Below are positions 11,775-62,400 of a DNA stretch of 64,000 nt, in pieces; position 1 is the stretch's first letter, and each line of letters starts with the position of its first letter. Source of the DNA: Takakia lepidozioides. Taxonomy: Eukaryota; Plantae; Bryophyta. Below the pieces are notes generated by a model that ran no database searches, was not told the origin of the DNA, and saw only the letters and a program-made list of their open reading frames with translations. The position numbers and the translations under genes are program-made. The stretch is taken from positions 53,196,001 through 53,260,000 of the forward strand of contig CM060734.1 in assembly GCA_030704615.1 (NCBI GenBank). Reading direction: 5' to 3'.

Positions 11775-12075
11775 GGGTGTGTACTTTGCATGAGCGGTGA
11801 GCATGAGCATGAGCACATATAAGCATGAGTAGAGAATTTTTTAGGGAATATTCCTGAAATTTAGCCCTTCCTGACCTAATTTTGACTGTTTTTCATGTCA
11901 AAAAGTGCGAGGTGCTGCATCATAATGTGGCCTAGAAGTTTGCCCTCGGTTCGGAAAAAGCAGGTTCGGCAACTGCCGAACCTGCATAGTCGGCAACGAT
12001 TACAGGCGTAAGAGGAGAATAAGGCCGCGGGAATAGGGCCGCGGGAATTGTGTTGCCAGGCAGGAATATGAGGCT

Positions 12076-12679: not shown

Positions 12680-12968
12680 ATAAGTCGGTGCCTACCAATG
12701 TTGGTGTGGTATGGGTATCAAATTTATCTCCGATTATGAACACAAAAAATGAATTTGGGTTAAAGTTTATCAGAAGCAAAAAAACAAAATATTAAACTAA
12801 ATAAATTAGAAGTATGTGCCGACTTATCCTCAACTAAGAATATACAAATCAGTTTGGGTTAAGAAAAACCTATAAGTCGGCGCCGACTTATCTTCGATAA
12901 GGAACAGAAAAAATCAGTGTGGGTTTAAAGTCGGCACCGACTTTAACGAAGGGAGAAAAACACAAAAA

Positions 12969-13063
<95 letters not shown>

Positions 13064-35623: not shown

Positions 35624-36720
35624 CAGTGTTGTGCGGGTATATTGATTTCAATATACCCTTGGGGTATAAGTAAGTTATTTTTGTCAAATCATTTACCCTC
35701 TGGGTATGTATAAATTGAAATCTCAAAAACTTATTTACCATCCGGGTATGGGTAAATTAACTTTTCAGATTTCTATATAACCCCCCCGGGTATGGATATA
35801 TATGCCAAAATATACCCTGAGGGTATGAATAGTTTCCGGGTATGGATAGTTATTTCCATTAATATATAATTTAATGGTTTTAAGGAATATATGATGTTCT
35901 TCAATATGTACAAAACACAAAAAAAAAAACAATCTATGGTAAAAGAGAAAATTGATAAGATATTGCATAATATTTTGGTGTTAATTTCCAATGCAAGATG
36001 GAGGAGGTTTGAGATTTTTTTTTAAACACATCGGCTCATAGCTCAACTGGTAAGTGCACAGTGTGTGTCACTCAGGTGGTTCGGGGTTCGAACCCGCTGC
36101 CCTTCCCGTGTGTGGGATTGTACGTGTCACGGTATGTCTAGGCGTTGATCGTCCTGTAGGTCTCATGGTCCATAAATGAAAGGGGGTTAATCTTTCCCGC
36201 TCCTCAAGGGCCTGAATTGTGGGCTGTCGCTCCCATATTTCCTTAAATAAATAAAAACCCCTCAAGGACCTAAATTGTGGGCTGTCAGGTTTTCTTTTAT
36301 GTATACATATATGCGAGATCTAAAGAGGTATTGTTTGGGTTATATGACATTTAAGGAATGATATATATGTAACATTTGTTTTAGCTGTGATTGGTGCTTT
36401 CTTATAGCTCAAGGTTCCCTAACAACACAACAAAAAGTGAAAAGACCTAGCACATAAAGGCTATAAAGGCACATAAAGGCCCTTATATACCCTGATTAGA
36501 TATACCCTTCATTTTAACATACCTTTCAGGAAAGTAGGGTATATTGAAGGTCTTGATGCAGGGTAAATATAAGGATAAGGGTATATCATAAAAAATATAC
36601 CCTGATATAAGGGTATACATCCGGGTACCTAAACTTGCCACACCAGGGTATATATATATCAATATACCCTGATATACTCGGCGGGTATATCAGGGTACTT
36701 CATATACCCGACCAACACTG
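35624..36720. mobile_element. Non-autonomous hAT element (1097 bp) with an 8-bp TSD
   Basis: Termini CAGTGTTG...CAACACTG; TSD gtgcacac at 35616-35623 and 36721-36728; many gggtat/ataccc subterminal motifs. Confidence 0.95.
36033..36105 (+). other. tRNA-derived (SINE-head-like) Pol III A/B box segment inside the hAT element
   Basis: A box tagctcaactgg and B box ggttcgaaccc; it does not fold into a convincing cloverleaf. A homologous copy lies at ~44997-45066. Confidence 0.65.
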
Positions 36721-37314
36721 GTGCACACCCTCATGGAGCTCTTGAGTTGCGGAGAAGCGGTGAGCAACAGTAGCAAGACCCAACATCATCTGTTTCCCAG
36801 GCAGAGGGGAAGAGAATTTTCCACTGCCAGAAACCAAAACCCAAAAAATGGCAGCAGATGAATCACACAATTATTGCATGGCTGCAGCAACAACGGGTGA
36901 AAATGAGGGTTTAGACCAGTGTTGGACGGGTATATATATGGACATATATACCCGGCCGGGTAATAGTCAGGGTATCATACTATTGAGACCCGCCACCCAA
37001 GTTTTGGTGGACCCGGCTTGAGTTAGAACTGGCGAGGGCCATCTCGCCACTTACCCGGCCCAAGCTGGAACCGGTGGGGGGCAACCTGGCTAACTACATG
37101 GAACCCGACTGGAACCTTGAAAATCAGCCGGGTATCAACTTTTGAAGAAGACCTTGAGATGTGATTACAACCGAGCTGCATTCATGAGTAGTGATTATGC
37201 AGCCGCCTTCTGAAGATCTCTATCGTGTTAATTCTCTGAGCGCCCAAATGCGATGGCAAACCAACATTGTTGCGAGCTTAGAGTCTACAGCCTCTGGGCT
37301 CCCTCCGGGAAAGC

Positions 37315-39698
37315 ATGGATGAGCAAGCTAGTTGTGCTTTGCAAGCATATGAAATCCCTGCATCTTCCAACATTTTACCACGTGATGACACTGAGGTTGA
37401 GCAAATTGGGCATGATCTTGCTATCGTGGATGAGGTTCTCGAAGATCCGCAAATCGAACTTGCACAACAGCAGCTCCTTGTTTTACAAGCACGGGGCAAA
37501 TTCTGGAAACCACACAATAGAGGCTCTATCTGTTGGTCATTCTTTGCGTTGAATGATGCAGATGAGGTGGACCATGTCAATCCTCAGATATTGCGTTGTA
37601 TTGTCTGTCGATCCCAGCCTATGACTTCCAATCAGCTTGTTGGTAAGCGTAGTGTGCTCCGGAAAGGTCTTGTGAAATACAACAAGTTGCATGGTATCAC
37701 TGCCATGCGCAAGCATGTTGACATTGCTCATCCGGAATTGTTTGCTACGAGGAAAGCGCATTTGGCTGCGAAGGCATCTGCGAAGCTCGAGCACAGCCGT
37801 CAAGCAAGTAAGAAACGAACTTTGCCTACAGGTTGTGCCATTACATCATACTTTGGGTCCACAAATCCTTACAAGCAAACAGATGAGCAGCAAGTGCAAT
37901 TTTGGAAGACCTTACATTTTACATTGCTAAAGGTTACAGGGCCCTCTCATCTGTTGAAAATTTGTGGCTTAGAAGATTGGTTTTGAGGCGATGTCCTCGT
38001 GTCATATTTCCTTCTCGGAGACAATTTGTGGACGAGGTTTTGCCATCAATGGTTGCTAAGATGATGGATCGTCATGTGTTGCCTTCCCTTGGAAGTTGTG
38101 TCTCTCCATCTGTCAGCTTCGATTTATGGATGAGCGGGGGTGGAGTCGACACTTTTGCCTTGGTAATCAATTTCATTAGTTCTGAGTGGGTTCATGTTCA
38201 TGTTACCGTGGGTCTATTTGAAGTGTCTAACACATCAGGGGTAGCGATGGCAGTTCAGTTGAAAACCTTACTCGACAGTTTTGATTTGACCATACGTATT
38301 ATTGCCTTTGTCAAGGATAAAGGAGGTAATTTGAGCACAATGGCTGCCACTCTCAGATCTATCGTATCATGCGATGTTTTGGAATCCCTTACAGTTTTTG
38401 AGGACATATGTGGGGCATATGCTTTGCACATGTGATGTCTAAAGCATGCCAATATGCAACAAATGAGGCCAAAGTTTGTGTAGATTTCAAGGAGGTTTCA
38501 GTTTCCGATGCTCAAGCGTCACTACAAAAAACAATCACATGGACTAAGAAAAGTGGAAAGGGCAAAATTGAGTGGAACAAGGCCCGTGTGGATTCAGGGT
38601 TACGGCCTCGGAAACTGAAAACTCCTGTCAAAACCAGATTTGCATCAAAGGTGATAATGTTTGAAGAAACCATGGAGTTCAAAGAGGCCATTGTCACTTG
38701 TTATGGTCGTCAAAGTCTGGCGCTCCAGGAAAGAGTTCCTAAGCCCCAAATCTGGGCTATTGCAGAGGTTATTACAAGTTCTTTGAAATCTGTCGTGACA
38801 GCTTGTGTGGCAAACCAATCTCGAGGTCATTGGTTACTTTCTAATGCACTCAATGCGTCCATATCCATCTCAGTAGTCATGCAAAGGGAGATGTTGGAGT
38901 TTGATGAGGAGACGCAACTGCCAAATGTTCGAATTGGAGCTTCTCCTACTGAAAAGCAGGATACGGCAAGAGGTGTTATATGTTCTCAAACCTTTCCTTG
39001 CATTTCTACAGCATTTTGATGCACGCAAGGCGCATAACATGTTTGCGCTTATGTTGGATCCTCGTTTCAAGGGGCTGAAACTTGTGTCAAATTATGTGGG
39101 CCATGACGCTGCTGTACAACTTGTTCAGGACTATAACCAGAAATGTCTATTGCCTTTGCTGATGGTTTGTTTTAAGCGGCTGAACCCAGCTACATGCGAG
39201 TCTGAAGTTGTTTCATCTCCTGAAACATATGAGGACAACAATATGTTTGGTGTGGGAGCATCAAACAAAGAAGCAAGTGCTACAGTAGTGAAGGCTGAAC
39301 TTTCATTATTTTGGCGATTCATTGTTCCTGTAACTGCAACAACCGATCCCTTGTTATGGTGGCGTGATCACGAGCAACAATTTCCCAACGTTGCATATCT
39401 TGCCAAACAAATCTTTTGCATCCCGGGGTCCCAAATTGAGACCGAACGAGTTTTTAGTCTTGCAAATGTCCTCACAGCACTCCGTCGTTGTTGTTTGCAG
39501 GTTGAGAATCTTGACAGGCTGGTTATGGTGATCGAAAATTGGCCAGATGACCCTCGATACGACTGTAAACCTAGAGGAGATCTGAAAGATTTCATGGTTG
39601 GAGAGGCAACCCTAGCCGAGGATAACTATGATGTCATAGAAGAAGCAGGTTTTTGCGAGGATTTGAGCATTTCATATCATGGCCACATGATTAGCTAG
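37315..39698 (+). pseudogene. hAT transposase, frameshifted (~37900, ~38410, ~38900)
   Basis: BED finger (CWSFF...RCIVC...MRKHVDIAH), SFDLW, VKDKGGN, CFAH, TRF, LDPRFK and the hATC dimerisation domain (PLLWWRDHEQQFPNVAYLAKQIFCIPGSQIETERVFS). Confidence 0.92.
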
Positions 39699-41089: not shown

Positions 41090-41585
41090 TTCTCAGAATA
41101 TGTGGACATTCTCAATGCATGTGCCAGCCCAGCAGCACTCGAACAGGGCAAGCGGCTACACGCCGGCATAATCAGAGTTGGTTTTGAATCAGATGTCCAA
41201 GTGGGGACTGCACTTGTCTGTATGTATTGCAAATGCGGGTGTGTGGGGGATGTGCGTGTTGTATTTGACACGATGCCTAAATGAGATGTGGTCTCATGGA
41301 CTGGGATGATGGCATGATATTCTCACCAAGGGCACAGTGAAGAGGCTTTGGACCTCTTTCAACAAATGCAACTAGTAGAAGGCATGAAGCCAAACAACAT
41401 CACCTTCATCAGCGCCCTCAATACGTGTGCCAGCCCGACCATCCTAGAAATGGGCAAGCAGATTCATGCAAGCATCATCAAAGCTGGATTTGTGTCAGAT
41501 GTCCAAGTGGGGACTGCTCTTGTCAGCATGGATTGCAGATGGGAGTGTGGTGGATGCGCACCAAGTGGTCTTCAAAATGTCTGAA
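41090..41585 (+). pseudogene. PPR gene fragment carried inside the hAT element
   Basis: ILNACASPAALEQGKRLH...VGTALVCMYCKCG...DVVSWTGM...PNNITFISALNTCAS, with in-frame stops. Confidence 0.87.
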
Positions 41586-42363: not shown

Positions 42364-44558
42364 TTTTTTTATTTTTTCATTTTTTGGAAAATATGTTTAT
42401 TTTATAGCAGGAGTGGGGATACATTCGAGGAAAAAATAACCTCTCGAACGGGTGCCATAGAGGCTGACCCAGGAAGACTCTGCTTCGTCACCAATAACAA
42501 AAAAAAAAAAAGGGCCAACTGAAATTGGCCAAGGAGAGACCAAGCTAAACAACTTGGAATTAATTATCCTAGTAGCTATCACGCTTCCTTTTGTATGTCT
42601 GAAAGGAGAGCTGCGTCCTAGATCGAGTTTTTCTAAGAGAGCGGCGGTGGTGTCTCCAGTTCACTTCAGATTCCTCGCCATCTGCCGGAGAAGGAGGAGC
42701 ACTAAACGAGCTCCCAGCTGGAAGGGATGGAGTCGTTCCAACAAATTCCCGAGGGTGAGTCTCTAGAGCAGAGGGAGCCAGAGGGCTTAACCTGGAACTT
42801 CCATCCATTCAGCAAGGCGTCAGATCTAGCCATGGCAAAGAAGGCAATTTTGCCTTCAGCTATGTCAAAGCCAACCCAGGCAGGCAACATTCTAAGATTT
42901 GCAGGATAGGAGGCAAGGGAAATCCAAAGAGATGGAAAATTGCTAGTGTCCAGGTCCCAGCCTGCATACGCTCTTCTGCTAGATAAGTTGGTTGTAGCTT
43001 CAATCATGGGTAACAAGGCACCATTTTCCCAAACGTGGGAGAAATGGCTGATGTTGACAGCCTCCCAAGGAGCCCAACGATTAGAGCATCTTACTAGAGC
43101 AGCAGCCTCTCTATTTGTGTTGCCGAAAAGAACTTGTCTGGACATCTCTTCGGGGGTGGAAGGGCCCAATTGGCGGAGGTGGGGGCGCAGCCTGATCCAG
43201 GCTGCCCAAATAGTTCTCCACGCCAACGATCCCACCCCTGGCTTAGCGTTTAAAGAACCGCCATGAATCACCCACTTTAGAGATTGAGGGACAAGTTCGA
43301 GGAGGAGGGGGTGGCACGTAGAATATGTTGCCTGACCAGGATGCTGGCCACTGTTTTTCTTTTTCTGCGAGATCTGGTCCCAGCTAACTAAAGCCCTACG
43401 GTTTGGCCTTGAAGGTGTGGCTCCCCAAATGAAATTGCGGATTAAAGCTTTAACCTTCTTGATAAAGACAACTCCAGGGGACCATACGGAGGATATGAAC
43501 CAACAAGAACCCAGCAAAATCTGATTGGCAATTAAGGCTCGACCAATGATGGTGAGATGCAAGGAGCTCCAGTAGGCCAGATGCTTCTTAAGGCGCGCCA
43601 AGATGGAGTCACATTTGTGGGAGTCATCTAGGCCATGTCCAATGAGGTGACCCAAAAGAACGTGGCACTCCCCATCATCCAGCCAACGGAGGTTGATATC
43701 CTGACCCCACTGTTGACAGTGAGAAGAGGAGCTGCCAGTCCTAAGCTTCGAGAGCAGACCAACCGATTTCCTCCAATTCACACCAAGACTTGATGCTTCG
43801 CAGAAAATGGATAAGCAATCCAAGGCACGGGAAACATTAGCCCTGGAGCTGTTGTTGACCAGGAGAACAGTATCATCGGCGTACATGGAGGATTTTATGC
43901 TGTAGGAGGGAGATGGGGGGCAGGGCACCTTGAGGCCTATGACGTCCTCACGACTATGCAGTAGATGTCCAAGCCCGTCTGCTGCTATGAGGAAAATAAA
44001 AGGCGATAAGAGACATCCCTGCCTGACGGAGCGGAAGAGCCGAAAAGGCTCAGATAAGACTCCATTGAGCATCACCTTACTACTGGCAGATAACAGGAGG
44101 ATCTTGATCCAGTTAAGAAAATCCCCTGAAATTCTGCATTTTTCAATAGCAGAGAAAAGGAAGTCCCAGGCTATATTGTCGAATGCCTTCTCAAAGTCGA
44201 GCATCAATAAGGCCAAGGGTTGATCCGAGTCATGCGCATGATGGAGGGCTTCGTTAAGCAAGAGAACATTGTTAAGGATCATCTTTTTCATAAATCCAGT
44301 TTGTTCCGGCCTAATCATCTTTTGAAGCAGGGGCTGAAGGCGAATCGCCAAGGCCTTGGTGATTATCTTGTAAACAGAATTCAATAGAGTTATAGGCCTG
44401 TAGTTCCTAATATCGTCTCTGCTACCCTTCTTGAAGATGAGGGTGATGACACCCAGTGAAAACTGGGATGGCATAATGCCCTTCGAGAGGACGTCTTGAG
44501 CCATGGCCAGAAAATCCCCGCCCATCTCAGGCCACATAGCCTTGAAGAATTCCACCGG
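42364..44558 (-). mobile_element. 5'-truncated L1/Tx1-like LINE nested in the hAT copy
   Basis: 617-aa ORF 44555-42702 with NYRPITLLNSVYK, LDFEKAFD, RQGC.LSP and YADD; A-rich tail at ~42364-42385 (T-run on the + strand). Confidence 0.92.
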
Positions 44559-44763
44559 GTTTTTGTCAAATCATTTACCCTCCGGGTATGGATAAATTGA
44601 AATATCATAAAATTATTTACCCTCCGGGTATGGGTAAATTAACTTTTCAGATTTCTATATAACCCCGGTCATGGATATATATGCCAAAATATACCCTGAG
44701 GGTATGAATAGTTATTTCCATTAATATATAATTGAATGGTTTCAAAGAATATATGATGTTCTT

Positions 44764-44768
44764 TTTTT

Positions 44769-44802
<34 letters not shown>

Positions 44803-44834
44803 CAAAAAGGAAACCTGGGAGCGACTGCTCGCAA
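44764..44834 (-). mobile_element. Very short poly(A)-tailed retroposed insertion with a 9-bp TSD
   Basis: gatgttctt is duplicated at 44755-44763 and 44835-44843 around a T-run plus ~32 unique nt. The insert is absent from the 35624-36720 copy. Confidence 0.85.
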
Positions 44835-46947
44835 GATGTTCTTCAATATGTACAAAACACCCGGGAAAAAAATAAATAAATAAATAATAAATAAAATCTA
44901 TGGTAAAAGAGAAAATTGATAAGATATTGCATAATATTTTGGTGTTAATTTCCAATGCAAGATGGAGGAGGTTTGAGATTAAAAAAAAAACACATCGGGT
45001 GGTAGCTCAGCTGGTAAGTGCACAGTATGTGTCACTCAGGTGGTTCGGGGTTCGAACCCGCTGCCGTGTCCCGTGTGTGGGATTGTTCATGTGACGGTAT
45101 GTTTGGGCATTGATCGTCCTGTATGTCAAGTTATTTCACCACTAGTGTGAAACTAGCCAGGAAATAGCTAGCTTTTACATATTGACATTTGGGATTGGCC
45201 CAATTGTCAATCCAGGGGTCAAGGCATATTTAGGCCTTGGAATGGTTATCTTCACGGCAAGTGCGGGAGGCTCATCTTTCTCGAGTTGAGCCTCACCGCG
45301 CCTAGCTATGGTACCGTAGTGTGGATTCCCCATGGCGTGGGGTGCACTTGGCTTGACTTGTATTTGAGTGATGAGGTTATATATGCATGAGTTTATGCTT
45401 CAGCTTTGTGAGCTCGTGCTTGTATTCTTCACACTCGAGAAAGATGAGCTCGTATCTGTGAGTGCCAGATACGAGTTAGTTGTAGCATTTGTGGTTTTTG
45501 CTTGAGAATGAAAGAAACCAGGTTGTTATGCAAGGAGCACCGTGGAGCTCTTGGTTGTTAGAAGCGGAGGCGATGTGGGTTACGAGGTAGTAGACCTTGG
45601 CATTCAATCTTCAGCTTCAGAGATGAGAGCACCATGCTGCAGGTAATTCCAGAGCACCTTGATGGTTTCAGATTGTGTACATGCATGAGCAAGCACGATT
45701 GGGAAGAGGACCAGTCAAGAGCAGGTTAGAGTGGCTTTGGTGGCAAAGCTGAGAACTGGACTTGGGAATGCGAGCTTTCATTGTGTGAAGGATTGCAAGA
45801 CCAAGCAAAAGGGCTGATTTGGCTTGGGGCAAATCAATGCACTTTGTGGAGTATGTTGAGATTGGGTTTCAATCTCGAGCTTCAGCATTGAGAGGGCTCT
45901 TGTCATGGCAAGAGCAGGGCTGAAACAGGAACTAAGAGGTGCGGCAAGGCCTTGGAATCTGCACCTAGGGTTTCAGAGCTTGGAAGAAGAGCTCTTGCAC
46001 AACAAGAGGAGTGTCTTGTGGCTGTAAATACAAGCCTTAGGGTTTCAGGAGCTTGGCAAGGGCTGTGGAGTGCTTAGTCTTGTCTTAGAGAGCATCAGGG
46101 AGCCAAAGAGCCAAGATAGGGGGCTGATATTACCTCTTGTGTGAAGAAGATGCATGCAGCCTATTGAAGCTTCCATCTTCAAGCTTGGAGGGCAAGCAAG
46201 GAAGAGGGAATGGCTGACTTCTCTTATGTGAGGCCAACGGATGTGTGGAGCATGCTTTCAGCCCGTTGAAGGCTTGTACTTTCAGGTTTGGGAGTGCAAG
46301 AAAGGAAGGAAGGGGCTGTTTTCCCTGTAGGGCATGTGTGGAGCATGCTTCCAGCCCGCTGAAGCTTGTATTTCCAGGTTGGTGGGTGCAAGAAAGGAAG
46401 CAAAGGGGCTGATTCTCTTGTGGTGAGAGTGGGGCATGTGTGGAGCATGCCTTCAGTCCATTGGGCTTTTGTTTTCAAGCTTTAGAGAGCTAGAATGGAA
46501 GGGCTAGGGCTGGTTCCCACTTGGGTGAAAGAAAAGCACTTGTAGGGCATATGTGAGGTGGGGTTTCAACCTCAAGCCTAGATAGAGCATGGCTCTTGAA
46601 GTGGCAGGTGTAGGGGGCTGGAATAGGTTCTAAGACATATGCTATTGCCAAGGAAAACGCTTGAATGAGTGAAACCAGCAAGGCTTGGTTGTTTGCCATT
46701 GAGTTTAGTGACGTGTTTGGGGAGTCTAAGTGAGAAAGAAGGCTTGGTTTGTGGCAACCATCTTCCTCATGGCTTAGGGCTACTATTAGTGGTGTGTAAG
46801 AGCCGAAAGAGCAAGAATACCTTGTTGATTTCTTCACAGCCGCCATAGCTCGGTGCAAAGAAGCCTAGAGTCCAAGAGACACAAACCCTAGCTTGGCGTG
46901 GCTAAACCCTTGGAGAAATGGCTAAACTGCCATGAGCGGCCATGGAT

Positions 46948-47290
46948 GGGGCTGTGACGGGCTGTGGCCTTTGAGGCTGTGACCCCTGTGACCTGTGTAG
47001 GGTTGTGACAGGCTGTGATCTGTGGCCTGTGGGGCTATGAGGGGCTGTGACAGGCTGTGGCCTTCGGGGCTGTGACCCCTGTGACCTTTGTAGGGCTGTG
47101 ACAAGCTGTGCTTGTGGCCTTCGGGGTTGTGATGGGCTGTGACAGGCTGTGACCTGTGGCCTTGGGGGCTGTGACATGTAGCCTCTGGGGCTGTGACGGG
47201 CTGTGACAGGCTGTGGCCTGTGTGGGCCTGTGCTGGTCTGTGGTGGCCCGTGTTGACCTGTGGACGGCCTGTGCTGACTCGTGGAGGCAC
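46948..47290. repeat. Degenerate gggctgtgac/ctgtggcc short tandem array in the element's 5' leader
   Basis: Many gggctgtgac(a/c/g) units. A separate ~3x catgtgtggagcatgc repeat lies at 46240-46460. Confidence 0.8.
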
Positions 47291-47849
47291 TGGTGGAGTG
47301 CCTAAGGACTGGTATGTGGTCTTGAAGGCCGAATTTTGAAGCTCGTGGAGAGCGGTTTGAGGAGTATCTTCATGATATTCCCATGGTCATGCAAGTGAGG
47401 GAAGAGATGAGGAAAAGAGTGTTGGGATGAGGGCATGTTGGGGTTAGGCATTGCTTTAGCTTCTTTTCCTCGTAGTTTTCCACCCTCTCATTAGGCCAAG
47501 ACCTTTCCGTAGGTGGAGGCAAGAATCAGTCCGGGTTTGGGCTGGGGTGTCCTTGCAGAAGCAACACCATGGAGTTGTTTTTGGTGTGGGGGAGTTGTCG
47601 TTCTGATTTCTTGTGTTTGGATCCCCTCCATACCTTCATGCTTGACTTTGCACCATGTTAGTTTTGTGTGGGCGCTTGTTTTTATAGGTGATTGGTCCGG
47701 ATTTGATCACCGGCCAGTCCTAGAGCATGCTGTCGATGGTGAGGCTGGGGTGATGACCAGTCAGACCATCATTGTTTCTCCTGTGAGGTTGGAGGTGATG
47801 ACTAGCCAACCATAGGAGTGCTTGCGGTGGATGCAGGTACAGGTGTAGG

Positions 47850-49950
47850 CTATGTTAGGAACCTAGTATTCCAAACCATAAGCCGCAACAAGTTCTCTAC
47901 CCGGTTACCTTGTGGAGAGGGGGTTAGGGACATGTTCATGACCGGTTGAGTGACAGTTTGTCAACACGGAGGTGCCACTAGTTGCTGGGGACATTGCTGG
48001 TTTAAGCACTAACGATACTAGTGGGTACACGAGACAAGGTGTGCGGTTTAGGCCACCTTCATCTCCTGTGTCTTCTACGGAAGGTTCTGATTCGGATTGT
48101 GAATCAGGAGGACTCACACTGGCGGTGCAAGTTGTTTCATTGCCATTGTTGTGGGACACAATGGAGGAGATGTATGGAGCTACCAAGGGGCCACGAAGGT
48201 ACTCTGGGGCGGTGGGCACCATCGAGTTGGATGATTTTATCCAAGAGTTTGATAGTTGGTGTGATTTGCAGCAAATGCACAATCCATAATTATTTACGCC
48301 TTTCATGGCATGGAAGGGGCTGTTTCAGCACCTTGAGGGGCCGCCTATAGATGATTACCATGAGTTCAAGCGGGGGCATGAGGTTGAGATTGAGGAGTGG
48401 AGGATGTACTGGTCACCCGACTATGTCTCCATCACTAGGGGCACTAGAGTCACGAGGGCAGTGGCTACACCTGCCGCTGCACCGGCAGCTTCAACAAGCA
48501 GCAGTGGGACTAGTAGGACAGGTGGTACCGTAGCTACGACGTCCACCCAAGCCACTACCGCACCAGCACCAGTACTCGTGCCTGCCTTCAACCCTGTTGT
48601 GGAGTTCTTCAAAGAGTTGAGAGGGAACTACCAAGGGGTGATGACAGAGAAGTTGCGGACCTTGCAAGAGTTCCAACGGAAGCCGACTGAGAGCTTGAGG
48701 GAGGCTTTCACTCGCATGAGGCGCTTGATAAATGTAACTCAAGGGGTTACGGAAGCTTAGGCAAACCAATTTTGGTATGGGATATTGGACAAGGAGCTGA
48801 GGAGAAGGGTGCGGGATGCAACTCTCTTAGAAACGGCCCAACCCACCTTAGCAAATGTGTTTTTGCTGGCAGAGTGGATAGAGTTCAACATGGTGGAGGA
48901 ACAAGTGGTCATGGTGGGATTTGCTAAGGAGACACCACGGGGTAGTGGTGCTCCTAGCCAACCACTACCACAACGTGCTCAAGGCAACAAGGGGGCTCAG
49001 GTGAAGCCTAGGGAAGGGCATAGAGGACCTCAGATACAGGGGTCTCTCCCTTCATTTGCTGGCCAACAACGGGCGGATGTGGTGTGCTGGACATGTGGAG
49101 GACCCCATGTCAAGAAGGATTGCCCAGAGGGAGGCAATGGTTTGGCACCAGCACAGCCTGCACAGTTGCAGTGTGGGTATTGTGGCAAGTACGGGCATGG
49201 AGAAGCCTAGTGCTATGGTTTGCATCCTGAGTTGCGTCCAGGCCAGTTCCAAGGGAACAATGGTGGCCGGGGGCGAGGTGGAGCAGCCTAGAGAAGACGA
49301 GGTGGCCAGGCACGAGGTGCAGGCCAAAGGCAAGCTCAACATGGAGGACACGGAGGTCAGGGTGTTGACCAAGGCATGGCCAACCGGCTTCAGCAGCTAG
49401 AGCAGAGGCTCGCTGCCATGGCTACAGCTCATGTGGTACCGGCTCCAAGGTCGGATGGTCCACCTCCTGCTCCTGAGGGAGTAGATATGGGAGGCATGGG
49501 ATTCATGTGCGGAGCAGCACTACCACTAGTGCAGGTGGAGTCTGCTGCAGCCATGACCCGAGGAGCAGCACGAGTTCCTGAGCCACGAGGTGCAGAGGTG
49601 GAGTTGGATTCACGGCGTGGGGAGGCAAGCCGTCAGGCTAGGCTTCCTCAGTCATTCACGTTGGCGGAGACAGTGTCGACGCCATCCATGGCACCTAGTT
49701 CTTGCCCGACTGTTACCGAGGCGGAGGTTACTATGCCATTGGGGAGAGCTACACGGGCAACATCACTACCTAGTGTTGTCAAGACTACGACAGCTAATGT
49801 GATGTTGGGAGCGGCCACATCTATGTGCCAGGCTCCATTATTCTCGGCTACCATGATTGCGACGTCGGGGGTAAGACCAGCTGAGGTGTTCAGGCTGGCA
49901 GCTACACTCTGTGAGAGTGGGGAGGTTACTTCATCTTTCTGCGGAGATAA
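47850..49950 (+). pseudogene. Gag-like region with two CCHC-type zinc knuckles
   Basis: YSGAVGTIELDDFIQEFDSW, FQRKPTESLREAFTRM, CWTCGGPHVKKDC and CGYCGKYGHGEA*C, interrupted by stop codons. The start is uncertain. Confidence 0.8.
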
Positions 49951-50099
49951 TAGGAGGTGTAGTGCCGGAGGGATCCGCGGATTTGAGGGTCAAGACTGCC
50001 ATGGCGGCGCCATGGCAAGCTGCATCTGCCAGGTTGATGGAGCTGCCAGCTAGGCCAGCCATTGAGCGCGCCATTGTGACACCTGGAGTTGTCTTGTTA

Positions 50100-50520
50100 G
50101 ACAACCAGGATGACATTTTCTATTTGAGTGGACCGGCAAGCAAGAGGTACCGGCCACTGCGGGTCTTGTTGGACTCGGGAGCTCAGCCATTGATGCTGGG
50201 CAGAGCTGCTATTGCATGCTTGGGCCTCACGGAGGCGGATATGGAGCCTTGTCCTTTCCAGATACAGACGTCTCTAGGAGGATTGGAGCAGGCTCGAGGC
50301 ATGACATGGCGTGAGTTGGCTATCAGACTACGACTGGATCACCCTACAGATGGCTCAGTGATGCGAGCCAAGGCCATTGTGATAGACGTGGTCTCATACG
50401 ATGTCCTGGTTGGTGGGGCAGTGTTGTACCCCATGGGCTTCACCCTGGATTTTTGGGAGGAGTCAGCTTCCTATAGGCCTGGATGGCAATCAGGGGAGGG
50501 CCGACGTGTGCAACTCCGTG
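50100..50520 (+). pseudogene. Retropepsin-like aspartic protease
   Basis: RVLLDSGAQPLM...YDVLVGGAVL. Confidence 0.85.
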
Positions 50521-50859
50521 TGACATTCATACGAGGAGTTGCGGTTGCCCAACGAGACAAGATGCTGACACTAGCAGCATTCACAACTGCACTGAGTTGG
50601 CCTGGAGAGTTGCTTGAGGGCAACACTTATTCAGAGGATGTGTCACCTCCGGGAGAGCAGGATGACATGCATGGTATGGCGGAGTTGCCTGCCATGATTG
50701 CTCAGACTCCATTGTGGGGCACGAGCAAGGATTTGTAGCAGGTTGCTGATTGATGGGTGCAACAAGCCTGGGTAGAGGCTTTTGTACCATCAGGAGAGGA
50801 GGAGAGTACGGGGATTACACCAAGACCACCTCAGTTGTCTCCATTGGACACCACACCTA

Positions 50860-51860
50860 TTGTGTGGCAGTATCCAGATGAAGGCATTTGTCTTCTGGAC
50901 TTGTTTGGCGGGATCAGCACTGGATTGGCTGCTGTATTACAGACAGGTGTACGAGTTCGGCGTTACCTGTATGTGGAGAGGGATGAGATTGCACGACATG
51001 TTTCACTTCGCCATGTTGCTCAGTTGGTGCAGCAGTACCCTGAGTTGTTGTCGGCGTCTGCAGTTCAGTTCAGTTCAGTTCAGTTCGTGGATATCAGCAA
51101 GTCTTACCAGCAGACATTTCGTTGCTGGGAGCGCAGGATTTGGAGCGGGTTGGTTCTATTGATCTAGTAGTGGCAGGTTGGCCCTGCTAAGGGCATTCAT
51201 CAGCCGGGCATGGCAATGGATTGCGAGACTCGAGGTCGGGTCTGTTTTGGGAGATGGTGCGGGTTTTGCGCCATTTGCAGTTTCATCAAGCTGTATCTCC
51301 AGCATACATCTTGGAGAATATGCCACTGATGGGCGATTCTCGGGCCAGGGTGATGGCCAGTGTGCATAAAGTCCGGTCGTGGCTTGGGTCAGCAGTGTTG
51401 CTGGATGCAGCTGCAGTGGGGTCACGGGCTCATCGTCCACGGCTATGGTGGACTAACTTGATGCCACCCGCACTGCTCAAGCGTGCATTTGGAGGGGATG
51501 CAGCGGCCAACACACCTCACAGTGGATAGCATTTTGGACACAGGGAGGTAGTCTCAGCGTGTGAGACACGATGACCGTTCGCCTTTGGCAGTGGTCAACA
51601 TGGTGGGTCAACCACGAGCAACATTACCTACACTGCTCAGCTTCCCATGATCGCATGCTTTCTGGGATAGTGGACCTGGCCTCCTGTGGGATGCTTAGTT
51701 GCAGCAGTTAGTGGAGCCTAATGCTGACGAGCGTGAGTGGGCAAAGGGTTTTACCATTGTACCACGGCAGTGCCGTCTCTTTCTGAGGCATCACGTCGTC
51801 AGGTGTTGGGGCAAGCAATGGATCTCAATTGCTTGACCTGGATTATCAGCTTGGTTATGG
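50860..51860 (+). pseudogene. C5 DNA cytosine methyltransferase domain, DNMT3-like, inside pol
   Basis: Motifs occur in order: I LLDLFGGISTG, II YVERD, IV IDLVVAGWPC*GHS (PCQ with CAA>TAA), GLRDSRSGLFWE, VI ILENMP, VIII DAAAVGSRAHRPRLWWTNL, IX ERE(W)AKGF and X RRQVLGQAMD. Stops and a frameshift are present. Confidence 0.9.
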
Positions 51861-52279
51861 ATGAGCAACGCAGAGTGCAGAGTGCAGAGTACACTTCCCT
51901 CGATGGTCTTTCCCCCTACCGAGACGGTACAATCAGTGAGTGGGGGCGAGCATGAGAGGACCACGGGGTGCAGACATCCATGGCACACGTGGGAGGTGCT
52001 TGAGGTTCAGAGGGAGTTGGCAGCCAGGGCGGCGGTGTTGGATGAGGTTGGGGATTTGTCTCGGGTTGAGGAAGTCCTCGAGGATGAGATGATGGGGCAG
52101 GATGAGGCCTTGTTACTGACTGAGCAGGTAGGGAGTACTGCTCAAGAGGTTGCAACATAGCAACCACTAGACGCGTCCTCTACCTCTAAGCCCACTGGAC
52201 TTAAGGTTGCAGTTACGGAGGACAATTGGGAGCCTGACATTGGACCCATTGTCACCGGAGGAGAGAGACGACGTATACG

Positions 52280-53670
52280 GCGATTCCTGAGGGCTTACAT
52301 GAATTGTTTTGCCTTCAGTTTGAAGGACTTGGGAGCACTGAAGGGTCAAGAGATCCGTATTGAGTTGGCCACTGACACGCCAATCTTTCGGAGACCTTAT
52401 AGATAAAGTGACATAGAGAGGTCTTTGATTCAGATGAGGACTCAAGATCTCTGGGAGGCGGGTTTGGTGGAGCTCTCTTGTGGAGAGTATGCTTCGGCCA
52501 CAGTGATGCCAGCCAAGAAGGATGTCTATGGCAATTGGACGGAGAGACGTATGTGCGGTGATTACCGGCCTGTAAATCGTCAGACCAAGTCTGATAAGTA
52601 TGCCATGCCAACACCAGAGGAGATCTTTGATGCCATCGGGCATGTTAAGGTCTTTAGCACTTTGGATTTACGATTCGGATATCACCAGTTGCCGATCAAG
52701 GAGGCGGACAAGCAGAAGACGACATTCTGGGGGATCAATGAGCACGGCAAGGATTGCCTATATCAGTGGTGGTTCTTACCATTTGGGCTTAAGAACGCTC
52801 CTGCAGAGTTTCAGAGAGTCATGGATAGGATTCTAGCAGGGGTGGACTTTGCTCGGTGCTATATAGATGACATCATCATCTTTAGTGCTACGGTGGAGGA
52901 GCATGAGAGACACCTTCAGGTGGTATCGGAGCGCTTGAGAGCGCACGGATTGAGGTTGCATCCGGGGAAGTGCAAGTTTTTCCACAACCAGATTGAGTAT
53001 TTGGGTCACATGATATATCCTGGAGGATTGGGGGTACAACAGACTAAGGTAGAGGCCATTGCACAAATTCCACGCCCCACGGATGTGAGCCGAGTTCGAG
53101 CTTTCATGGGGTTGACAAACTATTAGAGACGGTTTGTCAAGGGATTTAGTGCCATTGCAAAGGCTCTAACCAAGCAGACCAAGGTGGACTAGGAGTGACA
53201 GTGGGAAGACGAGCAGGAACAAGCTTTTCAAGAGCTCAAGGCGAGGTTGACTTCGGCGCCTATCCAGAGACGACCTATCAGGGGGCGTCCCTTTCAGCGC
53301 ATATGGATTGGAGCATGCTGGGGCTTGGAGCGGTGCTCACACAGGTGGATGATGAGGGAAGAGAGTTTGTAGTGGCTTATGCTAGCCGCACGAACAATGC
53401 TGCAGAGGCTAAGTATAGCTCATATGAGGGAGAGTGTCTAGCTGCAATGTGGGCCGTAGCACACTTCAGGTGTTATCTATACGGCAATCTCTTCACCCTT
53501 GTCACGGATCACCAGCCACTCAAGTGGTTGATGGAGTCAGACAAGCTTACGGGGAAGCTTGCACGATGGGCACTCATATTCCAGGAGTATGACTTTCAGG
53601 TTGTGCATCGACCGGGTTTGGTCAATCGGGATGCAGATGGATTGAGTCGCAATCTATGCACGAGCTAGCA
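52280..53670 (+). pseudogene. Gypsy-type reverse transcriptase and RNase H
   Basis: RMCGDYRPVN, YAMP, STLDLRFGYHQL, PFGLKNAPAEFQ, YIDD and YLGH; RNase H DWS...LGAVL, YSSYEGECLA, TDHQPL and NRDADGLSR. Confidence 0.93.
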
Positions 53671-53991
53671 GGATGACACTGGAGCTTGGTGGCATGGTGA
53701 GACGGACGAGGAGATGGTGCCGGAATGGCATGCATCTGTCTTTTTGTGTATCTTGGCATCGGGAGTTTGGACCTACAATAGGGATGTCTGTAGACGGAGT
53801 GTCTGAGGACCCTCAGGCTAGTGATGAGCCAGGTGGTGCCAGAGATATACATGAGGATTCGGCTGTGTTGGACTACCTCCGCACGGGAGACACGGCAGCC
53901 ACTGTGACTGCCAAGGAGAGGGATCGGATCCTACAACGAGCCAAGAGGTTCAAGTGGGATACACCTGCTTCGAGTATGGGAGGATGGTCGG

Positions 53992-55284
53992 GTGAGGATT
54001 GTGTCTCACCCAACACAGCGTGCACTGTTAGTGCGGCATGCCCATGAGGAGTTGGGGCATTTTGGAGTGCGACGCACTCACAGTTTACTGCAGGGGCAGT
54101 ATTGGTGGCGTGGTATGCATACAGAGGTGCAACAGTTCGTGGCTAGGTGCATGGTGTGTGACAGGGTGCGTGCTTTATTCAACGCCCCTACACCACAGTT
54201 GCATCATTTACCAATCACGGGATTGGACTACAGGTGGAGTCTTGACTTCGTAGGATCGTTGCCATTGACTATGCGCCACCACATATATGTGTTGGTGATG
54301 GTGGAGCACTTCTTCAAGTGGATTGAGTTGGTTCCGTTGCCTGACAAGGCTAGTGAGGGGGCTGCGTATGCATTCTTGGATCGTGTGCTTAGCCGATTCG
54401 GTGCTCCAGCTGAGGTACTCACGGACCAAGGGAGAGAGTTCTTGGGGGAGTTTCAAGCTTTGTGTGATAAAGCCTTGATAGATCACGACACCACTTCTCG
54501 GGATTATCCTGAGGCCGATGGCTTGGCAGAGAGAGTTGTTCAGACGGTGAAGAGGGGTTTACGCAAGTATAGCTTGCAGAAGGGACACCTAGGAGATTGG
54601 GATCTTCAGGTACCTTGGTTAGCCAAGGGCTACCGGTTTAACAAGCAAGCATTACTTGCCTCCTTCTCACCATATTTTCTTCTCTTTGGCCGAGAGCCAG
54701 ATTTGCCTGCAGCCATTTGTAGGGACACTGCTCAAGTCCTCAACCTTGACGATCCGGATGTGTGGGTATGTGCATGTGATCAACGTGCAGAGTTGTTCAA
54801 GAAAGTCATGCCCATGGCTTTTGAGAATCTTGCCATTGCACAGCATCGTGATACGTTGAGGTATGTCACTATACGTGGTGGAGGATATCGTCCTGGGGTT
54901 CGGAGATTTAGCCCTGGTGATTATGTTTATTTGCAGCAGACTGCTCCTACGACCCTGGATGTGACTGCAGGGCGTGTTATTCTGAGGGTTCGAGAGGTGT
55001 TGCCCTCAGGAGTCCTGATCTTGGAGGGTCGGGATGACATGACTTGGAAGGATCATGTGCGTAATTGTGCGCCATGTCACCTTCCCAATGTTGATGGCAG
55101 AGTTGACCCAAACTTGGCAGTGGTACCTGCAGGTTTGAGGTGCATGCTCTGTGGGTCTGCCAAAGGGGCAGCCACCATGCTTGTGTGTGATCGATGCTCA
55201 AGAGGTTGGCATATGGGATGCTTGACACCACCTCTTGAGAAGGTTCCTGATGGAGATTGGTTGTGTCCACACTGCTTGGGATAG
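53992..55284 (+). CDS. DDE integrase with a C-terminal PHD finger (open 430-codon segment)
   Basis: HHCC (HEELGH...CMVC), WSLDF, LTDQG and LAER; C-terminal CMLC...LVCDRC.RGWHMGC...WLCPHC is a C4HC3 PHD (55141-55275). Confidence 0.92.
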   Translation: MRIVSHPTQRALLVRHAHEELGHFGVRRTHSLLQGQYWWRGMHTEVQQFVARCMVCDRVRALFNAPTPQLHHLPITGLDYRWSLDFVGSLPLTMRHHIYVLVMVEHFFKWIELVPLPDKASEGAAYAFLDRVLSRFGAPAEVLTDQGREFLGEFQALCDKALIDHDTTSRDYPEADGLAERVVQTVKRGLRKYSLQKGHLGDWDLQVPWLAKGYRFNKQALLASFSPYFLLFGREPDLPAAICRDTAQVLNLDDPDVWVCACDQRAELFKKVMPMAFENLAIAQHRDTLRYVTIRGGGYRPGVRRFSPGDYVYLQQTAPTTLDVTAGRVILRVREVLPSGVLILEGRDDMTWKDHVRNCAPCHLPNVDGRVDPNLAVVPAGLRCMLCGSAKGAATMLVCDRCSRGWHMGCLTPPLEKVPDGDWLCPHCLG

Positions 55285-57699
55285 TGGCAGTGGACATGAC
55301 TGGAAGCAGCTAACAAGACATAGGAGGCCAAGCTCATAGGAGTCAATACACGAGATCCCAGGTTCAAGTTCACAGATTGCAAGACGGCGACTAACGATGG
55401 GGAAACTCTTGCACCCGGCCTCTTGATCTATCGAGTTTGAGTGTAGTAGGGACAATGGTGGAGGACTTAGTGAGGCTACGGTCACTATCACATCTTGTGG
55501 CTACCTGGATAGGCGATTGTGGTGGACTAGTGATTGCCATAGAGGGCAGCCTAGCGACTGACTAGTGGCAGCCTAGTGGTTGGACTAGTGGCTGGACTAG
55601 TGGTGGACTAGTGGTATACTAGTGTGTGGTGTGCACATGTGTTGTGTGGTTTTGGACAGTGATGTAGTTGTGTAGCGATATGTATGCGCACGACAGCTGT
55701 CTAGTTATTTCACCACTAGTGTGAAACTAGCTAGGAAATAGCTAGCTTTTATATATTGATATTTGGGATTGGCCCAAGTGTCAATCCAAGGGTCAAGGCA
55801 GATTTAGGCCCTGGAGTGGTTATCTTCACGGCAAGTGCGGGAGGCTCATCTTTCTCGAGTTGAGCCTCACCGCGCCTAGCTATGGCGCCGTAGTGTGGAT
55901 TCCCCATGGCGTGGGGTGCACTTGGCTTGACTTGTATTTGAGTGATGAGGTTATATATACACGAGTTTATGCTTCAGCTTTGTGAGCTCGTGCTTGTATT
56001 CTTCATCTTTATCATTGTGGTGGACTAGTGATTGCCATAGTGGGCAGCCTAGCGACTGACTAGTGGCAGCCTAGTGGTTGGACTAGTGGCTGAACTAGTG
56101 GTGGACTAGTGATATACTAGTGTGTGGTGTGCACATGTGTTGTGTGGTTTTGGATAGCGATGCAGTTGTGTAGCAAAATTTATACGCACGACATGTAGGT
56201 CTCATGGCCCATAAATGAAAGGGGGTTAATCTTTCTCCCTCCTCAGGGGCCTGAATTGTAGGTTGTCGCTCCCAAATTTCTTTAAATAAATAAATAAATA
56301 AAAACCCCTCAATGACCTAAATTGTGGGTTGTCAGGTTTCCGTTTATATATACATATATGCAAATCTGAAGAGGTATTGTTTGGGTTATATGACATTTAA
56401 GAAATGATATATATGTAACATTTGTTTTAGCTGTGATTGGAGCTTTCTTATAGCTCAAGGCTCCCTAACAACACAACAAAGAGAGAAAAGACCTAGCACA
56501 TAAAGGCTATGAAGGCACGTAAAGGCCCTTATATACCCTGATTAGATATACCCTTCATTTTAACATATACCCTTCAGGAAAGTAGGGTATATTGAGTGTC
56601 TTGATGTAGGGTAAATATAAGGATAAGGGTATATCATAAAAATATACCTTGATATAAGGGTATACATCCGGGTACCTAAACTCGCCACACCAGGGTATAT
56701 ATATATCAATATACCATGATATACCTGGCGGGTATATCAAGGTAATTCATATACCCGCCCAACACTGGTTTAGACAAGGACAAGGAGGTGGTAATAGCCG
56801 TGGTTCGTGCTGCAGTTTAGCAACTTGGAGGATGGAGCAGACAACTAGTGTTGTAGTATTTTAGACAAGGTACATTAGCCAACACTAGCCAAGATGTCTG
56901 GCATGCAGTTGTCAAGAAGTATGGTATTTGCAGATTGGTACTTCTGCGCAAGAATCTACCATTCTACCTTTAATCTAAGTTCATGTATGCATTGTATGTT
57001 GTGACAGAGAGGGTTGGGTTGTAATTGCCTCTCATATTACAATGTTTGCGACCTTAACCGGTGGACCCCACGCACAGACGCCCGGCTCGCCCCACCCTGC
57101 CCGCCGCTGCGCGCGGTCGCCCAACCGCGCCCCCAGTCCGCTGCCCTCCAGTCTGCCATTCCAGTGCTATCCAGTCCGCTGCCCCGCGTCCCTTAGCCAG
57201 TCCGCCGAAGGCGCCGGATCTGGACTGTCCATTTCAAAACCCATCCAAGCCCTCCTTTTTTAGGGCTGGGAAAATCTAAACCCTACCACCAAAACCGCCC
57301 TCTCTCTTGTGAGGGCTCTTTGTTGTCCGATGTCGCGGTGGGCACTTCCACGCATGCCGTGTTTTTCTTGTGCACGAGCGACGTTCATGATGATGAAGGG
57401 TGTGCCTGAACATGACAGGACTGGCGGGGCGGGCTCTACAGCCACCATCGTGCATATGCTTCCACTATTTTGCCTTCTTGTTGTGCTTTAGGGAAGGTTA
57501 GGCTTTGTGGTATGGTTGTATCTCATAAAATCGCTATTGTCTTATCTGTCCTCCATCTACTTCTGGTCCCTCATGATACCCCTTCGTACTACAACGGACC
57601 CCATGAGGGCGGAAATCGCAGAAGCATGATATGCACATGGGGGTGTGTATACATTGCAGATTTCATATCGGACGATGGGACTGTTTAGGGGACGAAGTA

Positions 57700-59457: not shown

Positions 59458-62400
59458 TGTAAAGTTATTTTACCATTAGTGTGAAGTTAGCTAGGAAATA
59501 GCTAGCTTTTATATATTGACATTTGGGATTGACCCAAGTATCAATCCAGGGGCCAATACATGTTTGGGCACCTGACGTTGTTATCTTCACGGCAGATCGC
59601 GGTGGGCTCATCTTTCTCGAGTTTAGCCTCACCGCGTCTAGCTATGGCACCGTAGTGTGGATTCCCCATGGCGTGGGGTGCACTTGGCTCGACTTAATAT
59701 ATGAGTGATGTTTTCATGTGCAAGTATGTGAGTTTGAGAGAGCTTGTGTGCTTGTATCATTTCTTTTTTTATCACTCGAGAAAGATCAGCTCAAGTCTGT
59801 GAGTGCCAGGTTCGAGTTAGTTGTAGCACTTATCTTTTCAAATCATGAGAAGCGGTTCAGCCTAGAGTGCTGTAAGGGCTCTTGGAGTGGCAAGAGTGGG
59901 GCTGGAAGGGCAGCACCTAGGCGTCCTAGAGCCAGGGAATGTGCAATAGAACTGCAGGTACACCAAGGTTGTAAAGGTGTGTATTTTTTGATTTGTTTTT
60001 GTGAGCTTCATGAAGAAAATGGAGCTTGTTGGGCAGCATATTGCTTGCTTGTTGAGTTTAGGGTGCTTCCAGTGGGCCATGAGAGCGCAGGAGTGCAGGG
60101 CGGTGGGGCTGATGGCTCTGCAAAAGCCATAGCTCAGCGGCAGCAGGTGTTGGAGCAAACCCCAACTCGGGGAGAGCTCGGGAACGCGTGGGAACATCCC
60201 GAGAGCGATCGAGAAAGCATGGGAACTCGTGTGGAGTTCCTGGGAACGCAGGGAACTGTTGACCATGACCGTTAACCGTGACTGTGGGAAGCCGTGATGC
60301 GGACACCACGGGTGGGCACGGTGACCAGATCGTGGGGATGGCGGGCCGTGAAAGCTCGTGGGCGTGGTACCACGGGGTATCACGGGGCAACCCGTGGCCA
60401 ACAAGCGCCTAGGGCGGGCCGTGAGGAGTCGTGGTGGTTGGAGCCACGGAAGGCCGCGAACAGGCAGATTGAAAAAATAAATAAATAAATAAATATTTTT
60501 TCACTCATTTCATGGGACCTTGATGGGGAGGCTGGGCTCTGAAGAATAACGGTTTTGAGCTAGCTGATCCAGCAGAAGAGTCAGAATTCCCTCCCTGTTG
60601 CGTTTTAACAAAGGGGATTACTTCCCTGCAGGTAATCTTTTCGGGTTTTCAGCCCAAATCTTAACTATGGGGGAGACCAGCCTGCAGGTAATTCTTTTGG
60701 ACAGAATGTTGTTGGGGCCTATATGTACCTCTATTTGCTCCATTTTTGAACCTTCAGTGAATGGTGTGGTTTCCTGAGGTGGTTCCATTGTGAGGAATGG
60801 CTGGTGGACGTAAGGAGGCACTGGCAGACCCTGTGGAGGCTTGCATGGGGCCTTGGAGGCCAAGTTTCATGAGCTCGTGGAGGGCGGTTTGAGGAGTGTC
60901 TACAGGATGCTCTCATGGTCATACAAATGAGAGAAGAGAGGAAAAAGAGGGTGTTGGGATGAGAGCTTGCTGGGGATAGGCATTGCTTTAGCTTCCCTTC
61001 CTCATAGCTTCCCACATTCTCTGTAGGCCGAGACCTTTCCGTAGGTGGAGACAAGAGTCAGTCCAGGTTTGGGTTGGGTTGCAGGAGCGACACTGTGGAG
61101 AGATTTTTGGTGTGAGGGAGTTGTTGTTTTCATTCTTGTGTTTGGATCCCCTCCACACCTACATGCTTGATTGTGCGTCATCTTAGCTTTGTGTGGGCGC
61201 TTGATTTTATAGGTGGTTGACTCGGGCTTGATCGCCGATTCAACCAGAGCATGTTGTCGATGGTGAGGCTGGGTTGATGACCAGTCAGACCATCTTTGTT
61301 TCTCCTGTGGTGAGGTTGGAGGTGATGACCAGCCAACCATAGGAGTTCCTGCGGTGGATACATGTGCAGGTACAGGCTATGTTAGGAACCTAATATTCCA
61401 AACCATAAGCCGCATCAGGTTCTCTACCCGGATACCTTGTGGAAAGGGGTTTAGAGACACGTTCATGACCGGTTGAGTGACAGTTTGTCAACACGGAGGT
61501 GCCACTAGATGCTGGGAAAAGTGCCGATACGAGCACTAGCAATACTAGCAGGTATACGAGACAAGGTATGCGGTTTCGGCCACCTTCACCTCTTGTGTCT
61601 TCTACGGAAGGTTCTGATTCGGATTGTGAATTAGGAGAACGCACACCGGCGGTGCAAGTTGTTTCATTGCCATTATTGTGGGACACAATGGAGGAGATCT
61701 ATGGAGCCACCAAAGGGCCACAAAGGTACTCTGGGGCGGTGGGCACCATTGAGTTGGATGATTTCATTCAAGAGTCTGATAGTTGGTGTGACTTGCAGCA
61801 AATGCGCAATCCACAATTGTTTACGCCTTTCATGGCATGGAAGGGGTTGTTTCAGCACCTTGAGGGGCCGCCCATGGATGATTACCATGAGTTTAGGCGG
61901 GGGCACGATGTTGAGATCGAGGAGTGGAGGATGTATTGGTCACCCGACTATGTCTCCATCACTAGAGGCACAAGGGCAACAGCCACACCGGCAGCTGCAA
62001 CAGCAGCTTCCACGAGCAGTAGTAGGACTAGTGGTACAGCAACTACGACATCCACCCAAGCTACTGCTGCACCTGCACCAGTGGCCGTGCCTGCCTTCAA
62101 CCATGTTGTGGAGTTTTTCGAAGAGTTGAGAAGGAACTACCGAGGGGTGAGGACAGAGAAGTTGAGGAGCTTGCAAGAGTTCCAACGGAAGCCTACTGAG
62201 AGCTTGAGGGAGGCTTTCACTTGCATGAGGCGCTTGATAAATGTAACCCAAGGGTTACGGAGGCTCAGGCAGTCCAGTTCTGGTATGGATTATTGGACAA
62301 GGAGTTGAGGAAAAGGGTGCGGGATGCAACTCTCCTACAAGCAGCCCAACCCACCTTAGCAAATGTGTTTTTGCTGGCAAAGCGGATAGAGCTCAACATG

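Follow-up and report, generated by a model that had tools for sequence, protein, structure and literature searches.

How a retrotransposon primes its reverse transcription without a tRNA primer binding site (PBS), and how it is integrated if its repeats do not form a pair of terminal LTRs, are the questions raised by a locus of the bryophyte Takakia lepidozioides. The stretch analysed here comprises 64,000 nucleotides of contig CM060734.1 (assembly GCA_030704615.1, positions 53,196,001 to 53,260,000 of the forward strand) and is referred to as the window, in whose numbering all coordinates are given. It contains an element at 45124-56193, all parts of which lie on the forward strand, with the ends TGTC..GACA and a 4-bp target site duplication (TSD), TGTA, at 45120-45123 and 56194-56197. 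A paralogous empty site (35893-36722) with a single copy of TGTA near 36155 fixes the insertion at these limits, and contigs from public runs have heterogeneous sequence upstream of 45124 (loose ends with an agreement of 0.39-0.44). The element adjoins the 3' end of a short repeat that by eye looks tRNA-derived and SINE-like (44988-45123, also 36024-36158) and is part of a duplicated segment, the other copy of which (35678-36722) is the empty site; neither ARAGORN nor Rfam makes a call on this repeat.

With respect to its layout, self-comparison reveals not the ordinary pair of full terminal LTRs bounded by PBS and polypurine tract (PPT) but the order A1..ORFs..B1-A2-B2, in which A is one part of a split repeat. 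Repeat A1 (45124-45432) constitutes the left end, starts with TGTC and is 96% identical to A2 (55698-56013), and repeat B1 (55516-55695) is 94% identical to B2 (56014-56193), which follows A2 in the place of a PBS and constitutes the right end; both B repeats end in GACA. The right-hand limits are 45432 for A1 and 56013 for A2, since 7 nt present in A2 and in other public-run copies are missing from A1. Repeats B1 and A2 meet in a palindromic junction, GACA-GC-TGTC (55692-55701), which is predicted to be an internal att site. At the PPT position directly before B1 (55505-55515) the G-run of relatives and of other family copies is lost, so that the tract is mostly missing from the window copy and present in other copies of its family (loose end at 55509). 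A second copy, whose repeat A (59458-59773) is 81% identical to the A1 region, runs off the window. Nested or tandem insertion was rejected as an explanation of B-A-B, since the unit as a whole has a single TSD around it and the same layout is found repeatedly.

The coding part starts with a gag gene (48161-49400, end approximate) that is broken by stops, has a weak Retrotrans_gag match (E = 0.0055) and shares its first methionine with copy 2, where gag runs from 61688. It is followed by a probable aspartic protease region (49875-50738) with an LLDSGA motif in its translation, which we take to be protease-like, and for which a Pfam search gave no protease match. Between this region and the reverse transcriptase (RT) sits a C5 cytosine methyltransferase domain (50880-51550, limits approximate; PF00145, E = 4e-11, obtained by reading stops as X in a domain broken by a frameshift and stops), and a methyltransferase lies upstream of RT in most related loci, too. 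RT (52440-53126; PF00078, E = 3.5e-31), RNase H (53150-53668; PF17917, E = 5e-33) and a DDE integrase (H2C2 and rve, by Pfam) with a C-terminal PHD finger (53977-55284) complete the series, the best matches among solved structures being 4ol8 for RT/RNase H and the Ty3 Gag-Pol structure 7q5b. A six-frame Pfam scan of 45124-56193 found neither a chromodomain nor a tyrosine recombinase. With the order gag-PR-RT-RH-INT (the protease by motif only), a DDE integrase, TG..CA ends and a target duplication within the 4-6 bp of Ty3/gypsy, the element is a Ty3/gypsy retrotransposon carrying a methyltransferase and a PHD finger, the latter reportedly also present in the Gypsy element REM1 of Chlamydomonas. 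The window copy is inactive because its reading frames are broken. DIRS membership was rejected on account of the DDE integrase, the 4-bp TSD and the absence of a tyrosine recombinase in the six-frame scan.

Named integrase homologs among the 120 of 291 matches listed come from Calypogeia, Marchantia, Riccia, Sphagnum, Klebsormidium and Haematococcus; among these matches the closest named ones belong to liverworts and a moss, in keeping with a land plant, probably a bryophyte, as the host, and the Klebsormidium proteins have 53-54% identity. By tblastn with the PHD finger one related locus was matched at the cut-off. The distance from the second D to the E of the integrase (54424-54531) is 34 residues, as it is in 79 of the 80 parsable homologs (120 read). 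The usual spacing is 35 residues, and the shorter one may mark a clade.

Directly after A1 lies a PBS (45433-45449) that, in agreement with the original prediction, is the reverse complement at 17/17 positions of a site within A1 (45270-45286), the predicted self-primer site. The spacer is 0, A1 stopping at 45432 and the PBS starting at 45433. Copy 2 retains the arrangement, its predicted self-primer site (59606-59622) pairing with its PBS (59774-59790) at 16/17 positions and without mismatch in the inner 13-nt core, and no comparable pair was found after A2, as had likewise been claimed. In accordance with the reported lack of a tRNA PBS, none of 16 PBS examined starts with TGG. ARAGORN finds no tRNA genes in the window or in 18 related loci, and an Rfam scan of 44700-46000 gave no match.

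The reach of chance was gauged by the longest perfect pairing, with any site in A1, that starts at the base directly following A1. It never exceeded 10 (mode 4) in 2000 dinucleotide shuffles of A1, and at 9,900 control positions in the interior the same statistic stayed at 10 or below. An (AT)n run aside, the pair is the sole perfect 17-nt inverted pair at a spacing of up to about 200 nt in the 64 kb. The segments concerned fold at z = -6.3 and -3.3, and just 3' of the PBS there is a 10-bp hairpin (45449-45475), most pairs of which are retained in copy 2 with altered letters (alignment compared by eye). A small local hairpin covers part of the primer site or encloses it in several families (45267-45294 in the window, 1836-1856 and 1933-1943 in locus L011), and in the L018 family repeat A contains, about 70 nt from its end, another primer-like copy that can pair across the A|PBS boundary; together they possibly form a switch between RNA folds.

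In order to follow the pairing beyond the window, related loci were collected by an RT search of metagenome contigs, in which 80 loci (L-numbered) were kept from 214 matches; they stem from few samples, and one insertion is often present repeatedly. A search of viral contigs yielded no relative. Since repeats A and B of the window have no blastn match in any of the 80 loci, the latter test the pairing independently of its letters. Complementarity across copies, on which the original prediction depended, is kept: in 20 of 27 A1 copies (2 from the window, 25 from the loci) the best pairing after A is found at the homologous internal site. One of the remaining rows is shifted (L027) and six are missed (L013, L024, L042 and L064-L066), the first three of these having a damaged primer site. 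A de novo primer/PBS scan of 18 loci without a mapped A1 gave nothing in 14 and AT-rich, chance-like matches in 4, so that these loci do not add to the evidence.

After duplicates of one insertion had been dropped from the 20 rows, and with 13 bases anchored at the A end, the pairs of each copy with its own site reach a mean of 11.2/13 Watson-Crick matches (16 copies, four families), compared to a mean of 6.9/13 and a maximum of 10 for 158 cross-family pairs; as the sites were first found by best pairing there is a bias to high scores, which is limited by the fixed position within each family. At 8 of the 13 positions the four family representatives have two or three different Watson-Crick pairs. 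The covariation check that had been proposed thus comes out positively, compensatory changes keeping the pairing in four sequence families.

Self-priming, as originally proposed, is therefore retained as the best explanation of the site, and the primer of 17 nt starting at 45270 had to be given up: positions 14-17 are poorly conserved beyond the window and L018 families, for which reason the working primer is probably about 13 nt long (45274-45286). In line with this, both the common public-run variant 45446 G>C and copy 2 break pair 14 only, the core begins at the A of a CA step, and in the L046 and L072 families the pairing extends across some 13 bases, mostly from an A after C. The RNA would then start near 45274. 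A TATA-like box is located 41-44 nt before the primer 3' end in 7 of 9 rows of the L018 family and in all three of the L046 family (looser motifs of this kind having been picked after inspection of the sequences), which places the start about 12-14 nt from the primer 3' end and suggests that in relatives the spacing fits a start at the primer. The window copies lack a canonical TATA box at the expected place and have a non-canonical motif only, and the L072 family has no such motif at all. When the RNA is folded from the proposed start, the minimum-energy structure has all 13 primer bases paired in four of the seven copies examined, 9/13 in window copy 1, 11 in another copy and 0/13 in L072. 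The side duplexes of a three-duplex "pretzel" around the PBS can be drawn, but they are placed differently between copies.

The relatives also disclose the boundaries that are eroded in the window. Their G-rich PPT ends where B1 begins and is found before B1 only, and their PBS begins at the point where A2 yields to B2 and is found after A1 only. Because the PPT precedes B and the PBS follows A, the reverse-transcribed LTR is likely to be B+A, with A1 as its downstream part and the putative att site in its interior; the B-A-B layout, from which this position of the att sites follows, was left out of the original prediction. The 2-nt spacer between CA and TG at the B|A junction recurs in relatives, and of the 14 distinct insertions in which both ends can be read 11 have a perfect 4-bp TSD, two of the other three matching at 3/4 positions and one being mismatched. 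The junctions between A2 and B2 are clean in 14 of 16 cases (by eye), which is neater than ordinary end joining predicts. In none of 19 cases is the start of A1 preceded by B, and the form A-B-A..B was not seen among these relatives.

An A..B form with a TSD is common in the relatives. In the L018 family B is followed by flanking sequence in 10 of 16 distinct insertions and by A in 5, one being truncated; in the older group flanking sequence comes after B in one of 10. Copies with the order A..ORFs..B, thus lacking repeated ends, and with 4-bp TSDs are L023, L025, L037, L042, L076/L080 and L015/L024. Such a form could arise if both junctions are cut, by way of a one-LTR circle, or through subsequent recombination of B1 with B2. 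In the older group B1 and B2 cluster by element and not by position (transversion distance 0.017 within, 0.042-0.051 between elements), and in the young L018 family they are uninformative (0.061 within, 0.064-0.070 between). Duplicate insertions were spotted with a quick RT tree of the fetched loci and one outgroup, which was used for this purpose only. L072, L078 and L061/L062 have clearly diverged RT sequences and yet the same flanking sequence, and they appear to be one old insertion that was inherited or duplicated together with the host region.

A course of events connecting the pairing and its conservation with the layout, the boundaries and the target duplications can be proposed from these sequence features: the element is probably a self-primed Ty3/gypsy retrotransposon whose RNA would start near 45274 and whose integrase would cut the internal B/A palindrome. 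As the first step, the 5' end of the RNA would anneal to 45433-45445, and a cut at 45286|45287 would provide the 3'-OH, as in Tf1. Judged by the boundaries seen in relatives, the minus-strand strong stop would next jump to A2, and the plus strand would start at the PPT before B1. Because the usual rules of LTR reverse transcription are here applied to the positions of PPT and PBS, the predicted cDNA is B-A-PBS..PPT-B-A, with ends devoid of TG..CA. In a third step the A end would be joined to the B start, whether the cDNA circularises or RT jumps from end to end, giving rise to the A2|B2 junction. Finally, a staggered integrase cut after CA on both strands of GACA-nn-TGTC would generate two processed ends, and A..B-A-B would be inserted with a 4-bp duplication, an outcome to be expected when, after the A end has been joined to the B start, the opening takes place at the first B|A junction.

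Use of GACA-nn-TGTC as an internal att site is likely. A plain two-LTR circle would have two equal B|A sites, yet no A1 is preceded by B, so that the joining would need an asymmetry; taken together with the clean joins, this calls for an end-to-end jump of RT or a bias of the integrase. Extending the scheme beyond this locus, we incline to the view that a bryophyte, and probably also streptophyte-algal, clade has moved its att sites to an LTR-internal palindrome, and that every normal insertion would need an end-to-end-joined, self-primed cDNA opened there by the DDE integrase, as the only route to integration. If this is true, cleavage of the junction, a side reaction in retroviruses, would be the sole route of integration in this clade, and a DIRS-like order without a tyrosine recombinase would be explained.

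Two aberrant insertions are informative in this regard, although each fossil junction represents a single event. In the first (L007 and L010, representing one insertion) at least 10 PBS bases are retained between A2 and B2, and A2 starts at the primer 3' boundary, the predicted end of the strong-stop DNA. In the second (L045 and L048, also one insertion, with 99.5% overlap and the TSD CATT) the terminal A runs into an inverted copy of A (positions 180 to 1, reverse-complemented), the joint falling on the primer 3' base; an inverted B and PPT form the start, and each end coincides with a GACA site in an inverted copy of a repeat. Most simply, this can be read as a plus strand, ending in a copy of the PBS, that folded back on its own primer site, with the minus strand folding back, too, and both ends being cut at GACA; cutting would therefore not need a circle. 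Being joined at the primer boundary, these insertions support self-priming and internal cutting as the putative mechanisms.

A different origin of the repeat order has to be considered in view of its identity with the A-coding-B-A-B layout of DIRS-type elements, to which we take PAT, TOC1 and Ngaro, with their split direct repeats, to belong. A full RNA from A1 to B2 might be copied and its ends rebuilt on B1|A2, B2 then being inherited from the parent element; both the clean state of 14 of the 16 A2|B2 junctions and the absence of an A-B-A..B form are what one would expect on this account. However, a PPT before B1 only and a PBS after A1 only speak against it, B1 and B2 of the older group cluster by element, a PBS remnant is found within one A2|B2 junction (L007/L010), and the element has a DDE integrase and 4-bp TSDs and not a tyrosine recombinase. 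This origin is thus doubtful.

It is also unlikely that the pairing represents a structural stem of the 5' leader, involved in packaging, dimerisation or translation control, and that the primer is a tRNA fragment or some other host RNA. Half-tRNA priming does exist in plant copia lineages (PMC6317226), and strong structure in the region extends past the 13-17 bp; against this, the pairing begins immediately behind A in all families, its letters covary with the partner site between families, which a conserved tRNA would not follow, and the fossil joins fall at the primer 3' base. Least probable is the assumption that the inverted pair is neutral, left behind by an earlier inversion or template switch, and that the order of the repeats is due to rearrangement after insertion. 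The decay of all copies and the loss of pairing in some relatives would agree with it, but the unit as a whole is bounded by TSDs, families whose repeat sequences are unrelated have the layout and the position of the pairing in common, and the same layout has been published for Klebsormidium (PMC5890265), so that this assumption can be considered as largely refuted already.

Compared with known systems, the element most resembles KnitGypsy-Dnmt3 of Klebsormidium nitens, a Gypsy element with a Dnmt3 and DIRS-like repeats (PMC5890265), with which it shares the Gypsy domains, a C5-methyltransferase in Pol and the order A-coding-B-A-B; the likeness rests on domains, layout and the homology of the integrase to Klebsormidium proteins. 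The text and three supplements of that publication contain no PBS, PPT, att site or replication model that could be found (PMC5890265), and in the available part of a 2026 preprint streptophyte Gypsy-DNMT3 elements are mentioned once. Self-priming, in turn, is established for Tf1/sushi elements and predicted for plant Tcn1 and TAR (PMC6317226, PMC4600332, bioRxiv 2022.12.06.519325), and according to the accessible text of the REXdb survey it is the dominant PBS type only in Tcn1 among gypsy and in TAR among copia elements (PMC6317226). As in Tf1/sushi and Tcn1, a site just after the 5' repeat pairs within that repeat and a tRNA PBS is absent. In contrast, those are chromoviruses with ordinary LTRs, and for Tcn1 a chromodomain and, in 100% of the elements, 5-bp TSDs are reported (PMC6317226), whereas the repeats of the element described here are split, its TSD measures 4 bp, a PHD finger is present and a CA spacer in front of the PBS is absent. 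Of the original proposal of Tf1-type priming the mode of priming stands, as the site very probably works like that of Tf1, in an element outside Tf1/sushi and Tcn1; membership of either group was rejected in view of the PHD finger, the missing chromodomain and the 4-bp instead of 5-bp TSD. In Tf1 about half of the cDNA molecules retain a copy of the PBS at the 3' end (PMC11042837).

DIRS-order elements such as SymbioDIRS-Dnmt3 (PMC5890265) have the same A-coding-B-A-B order and a B|A junction resembling joined ends, but they use a tyrosine recombinase, in contrast to the DDE integrase, TG..CA ends, TSD, PPT and PBS found here. A precedent for the proposed cleavage is the integrase of foamy virus, which cuts the palindromic LTR-LTR junction after CA on both strands (PMC1180852), i.e., by the same staggered cut within a palindrome resulting in two processed ends; the palindrome of foamy virus, however, arises by the joining of cDNA ends, whereas here it is LTR-internal and would be the only att site. 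Gypsy-7a_cRei of Chlamydomonas is an active Gypsy element that also has a PHD finger, and the available description does not mention split repeats or self-priming (PMC9940879). No literature linking self-priming, split repeats and internal att sites was found in a search outside which subscription journals and Repbase lay. Self-priming and the split layout are hence each already known, and what would be new is the mechanism proposed to link them.

For Gypsy elements with DIRS-like repeats, which have been reported without a mechanism, a testable model of replication is thereby offered, and tRNA-independent self-priming would be extended to a Gypsy group without chromodomains. If the integrase normally opens the internal junction, these elements would offer a naturally occurring system with joined cDNA as the productive intermediate, a role that has long been argued for it in retroviruses. 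In practical terms, programs that need two terminal LTRs for detection would end such elements at A2 or miss the A..B copies.

Besides the two copies of this element, the window harbours further repetitive sequences. A second, distant Ty3/gypsy fragment (17777-20505, reverse strand) encodes gag, a zinc knuckle, protease and RT, and no LTR pair was found near it. A 622-aa frame with an RT domain at 42702-44570 (reverse strand) is probably LINE-like, and broken hAT transposase-like frames are located at 37282-39698 (forward strand), the last of which has a dimerisation domain (E = 1e-13). At 9860-11810, 16060-16740 and 41110-41550 there are dispersed repeats with a period of 300 nt that by eye look like fragments of PPR genes. 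Two opposed arrays of repeats of about 105-125 nt at 12846-14546 form a large imperfect inverted repeat, which is foldback- or MITE-like, and 23212-23697 is a probable MITE, with 80-nt inverted repeats that are 99% matched and lie 326 nt apart.
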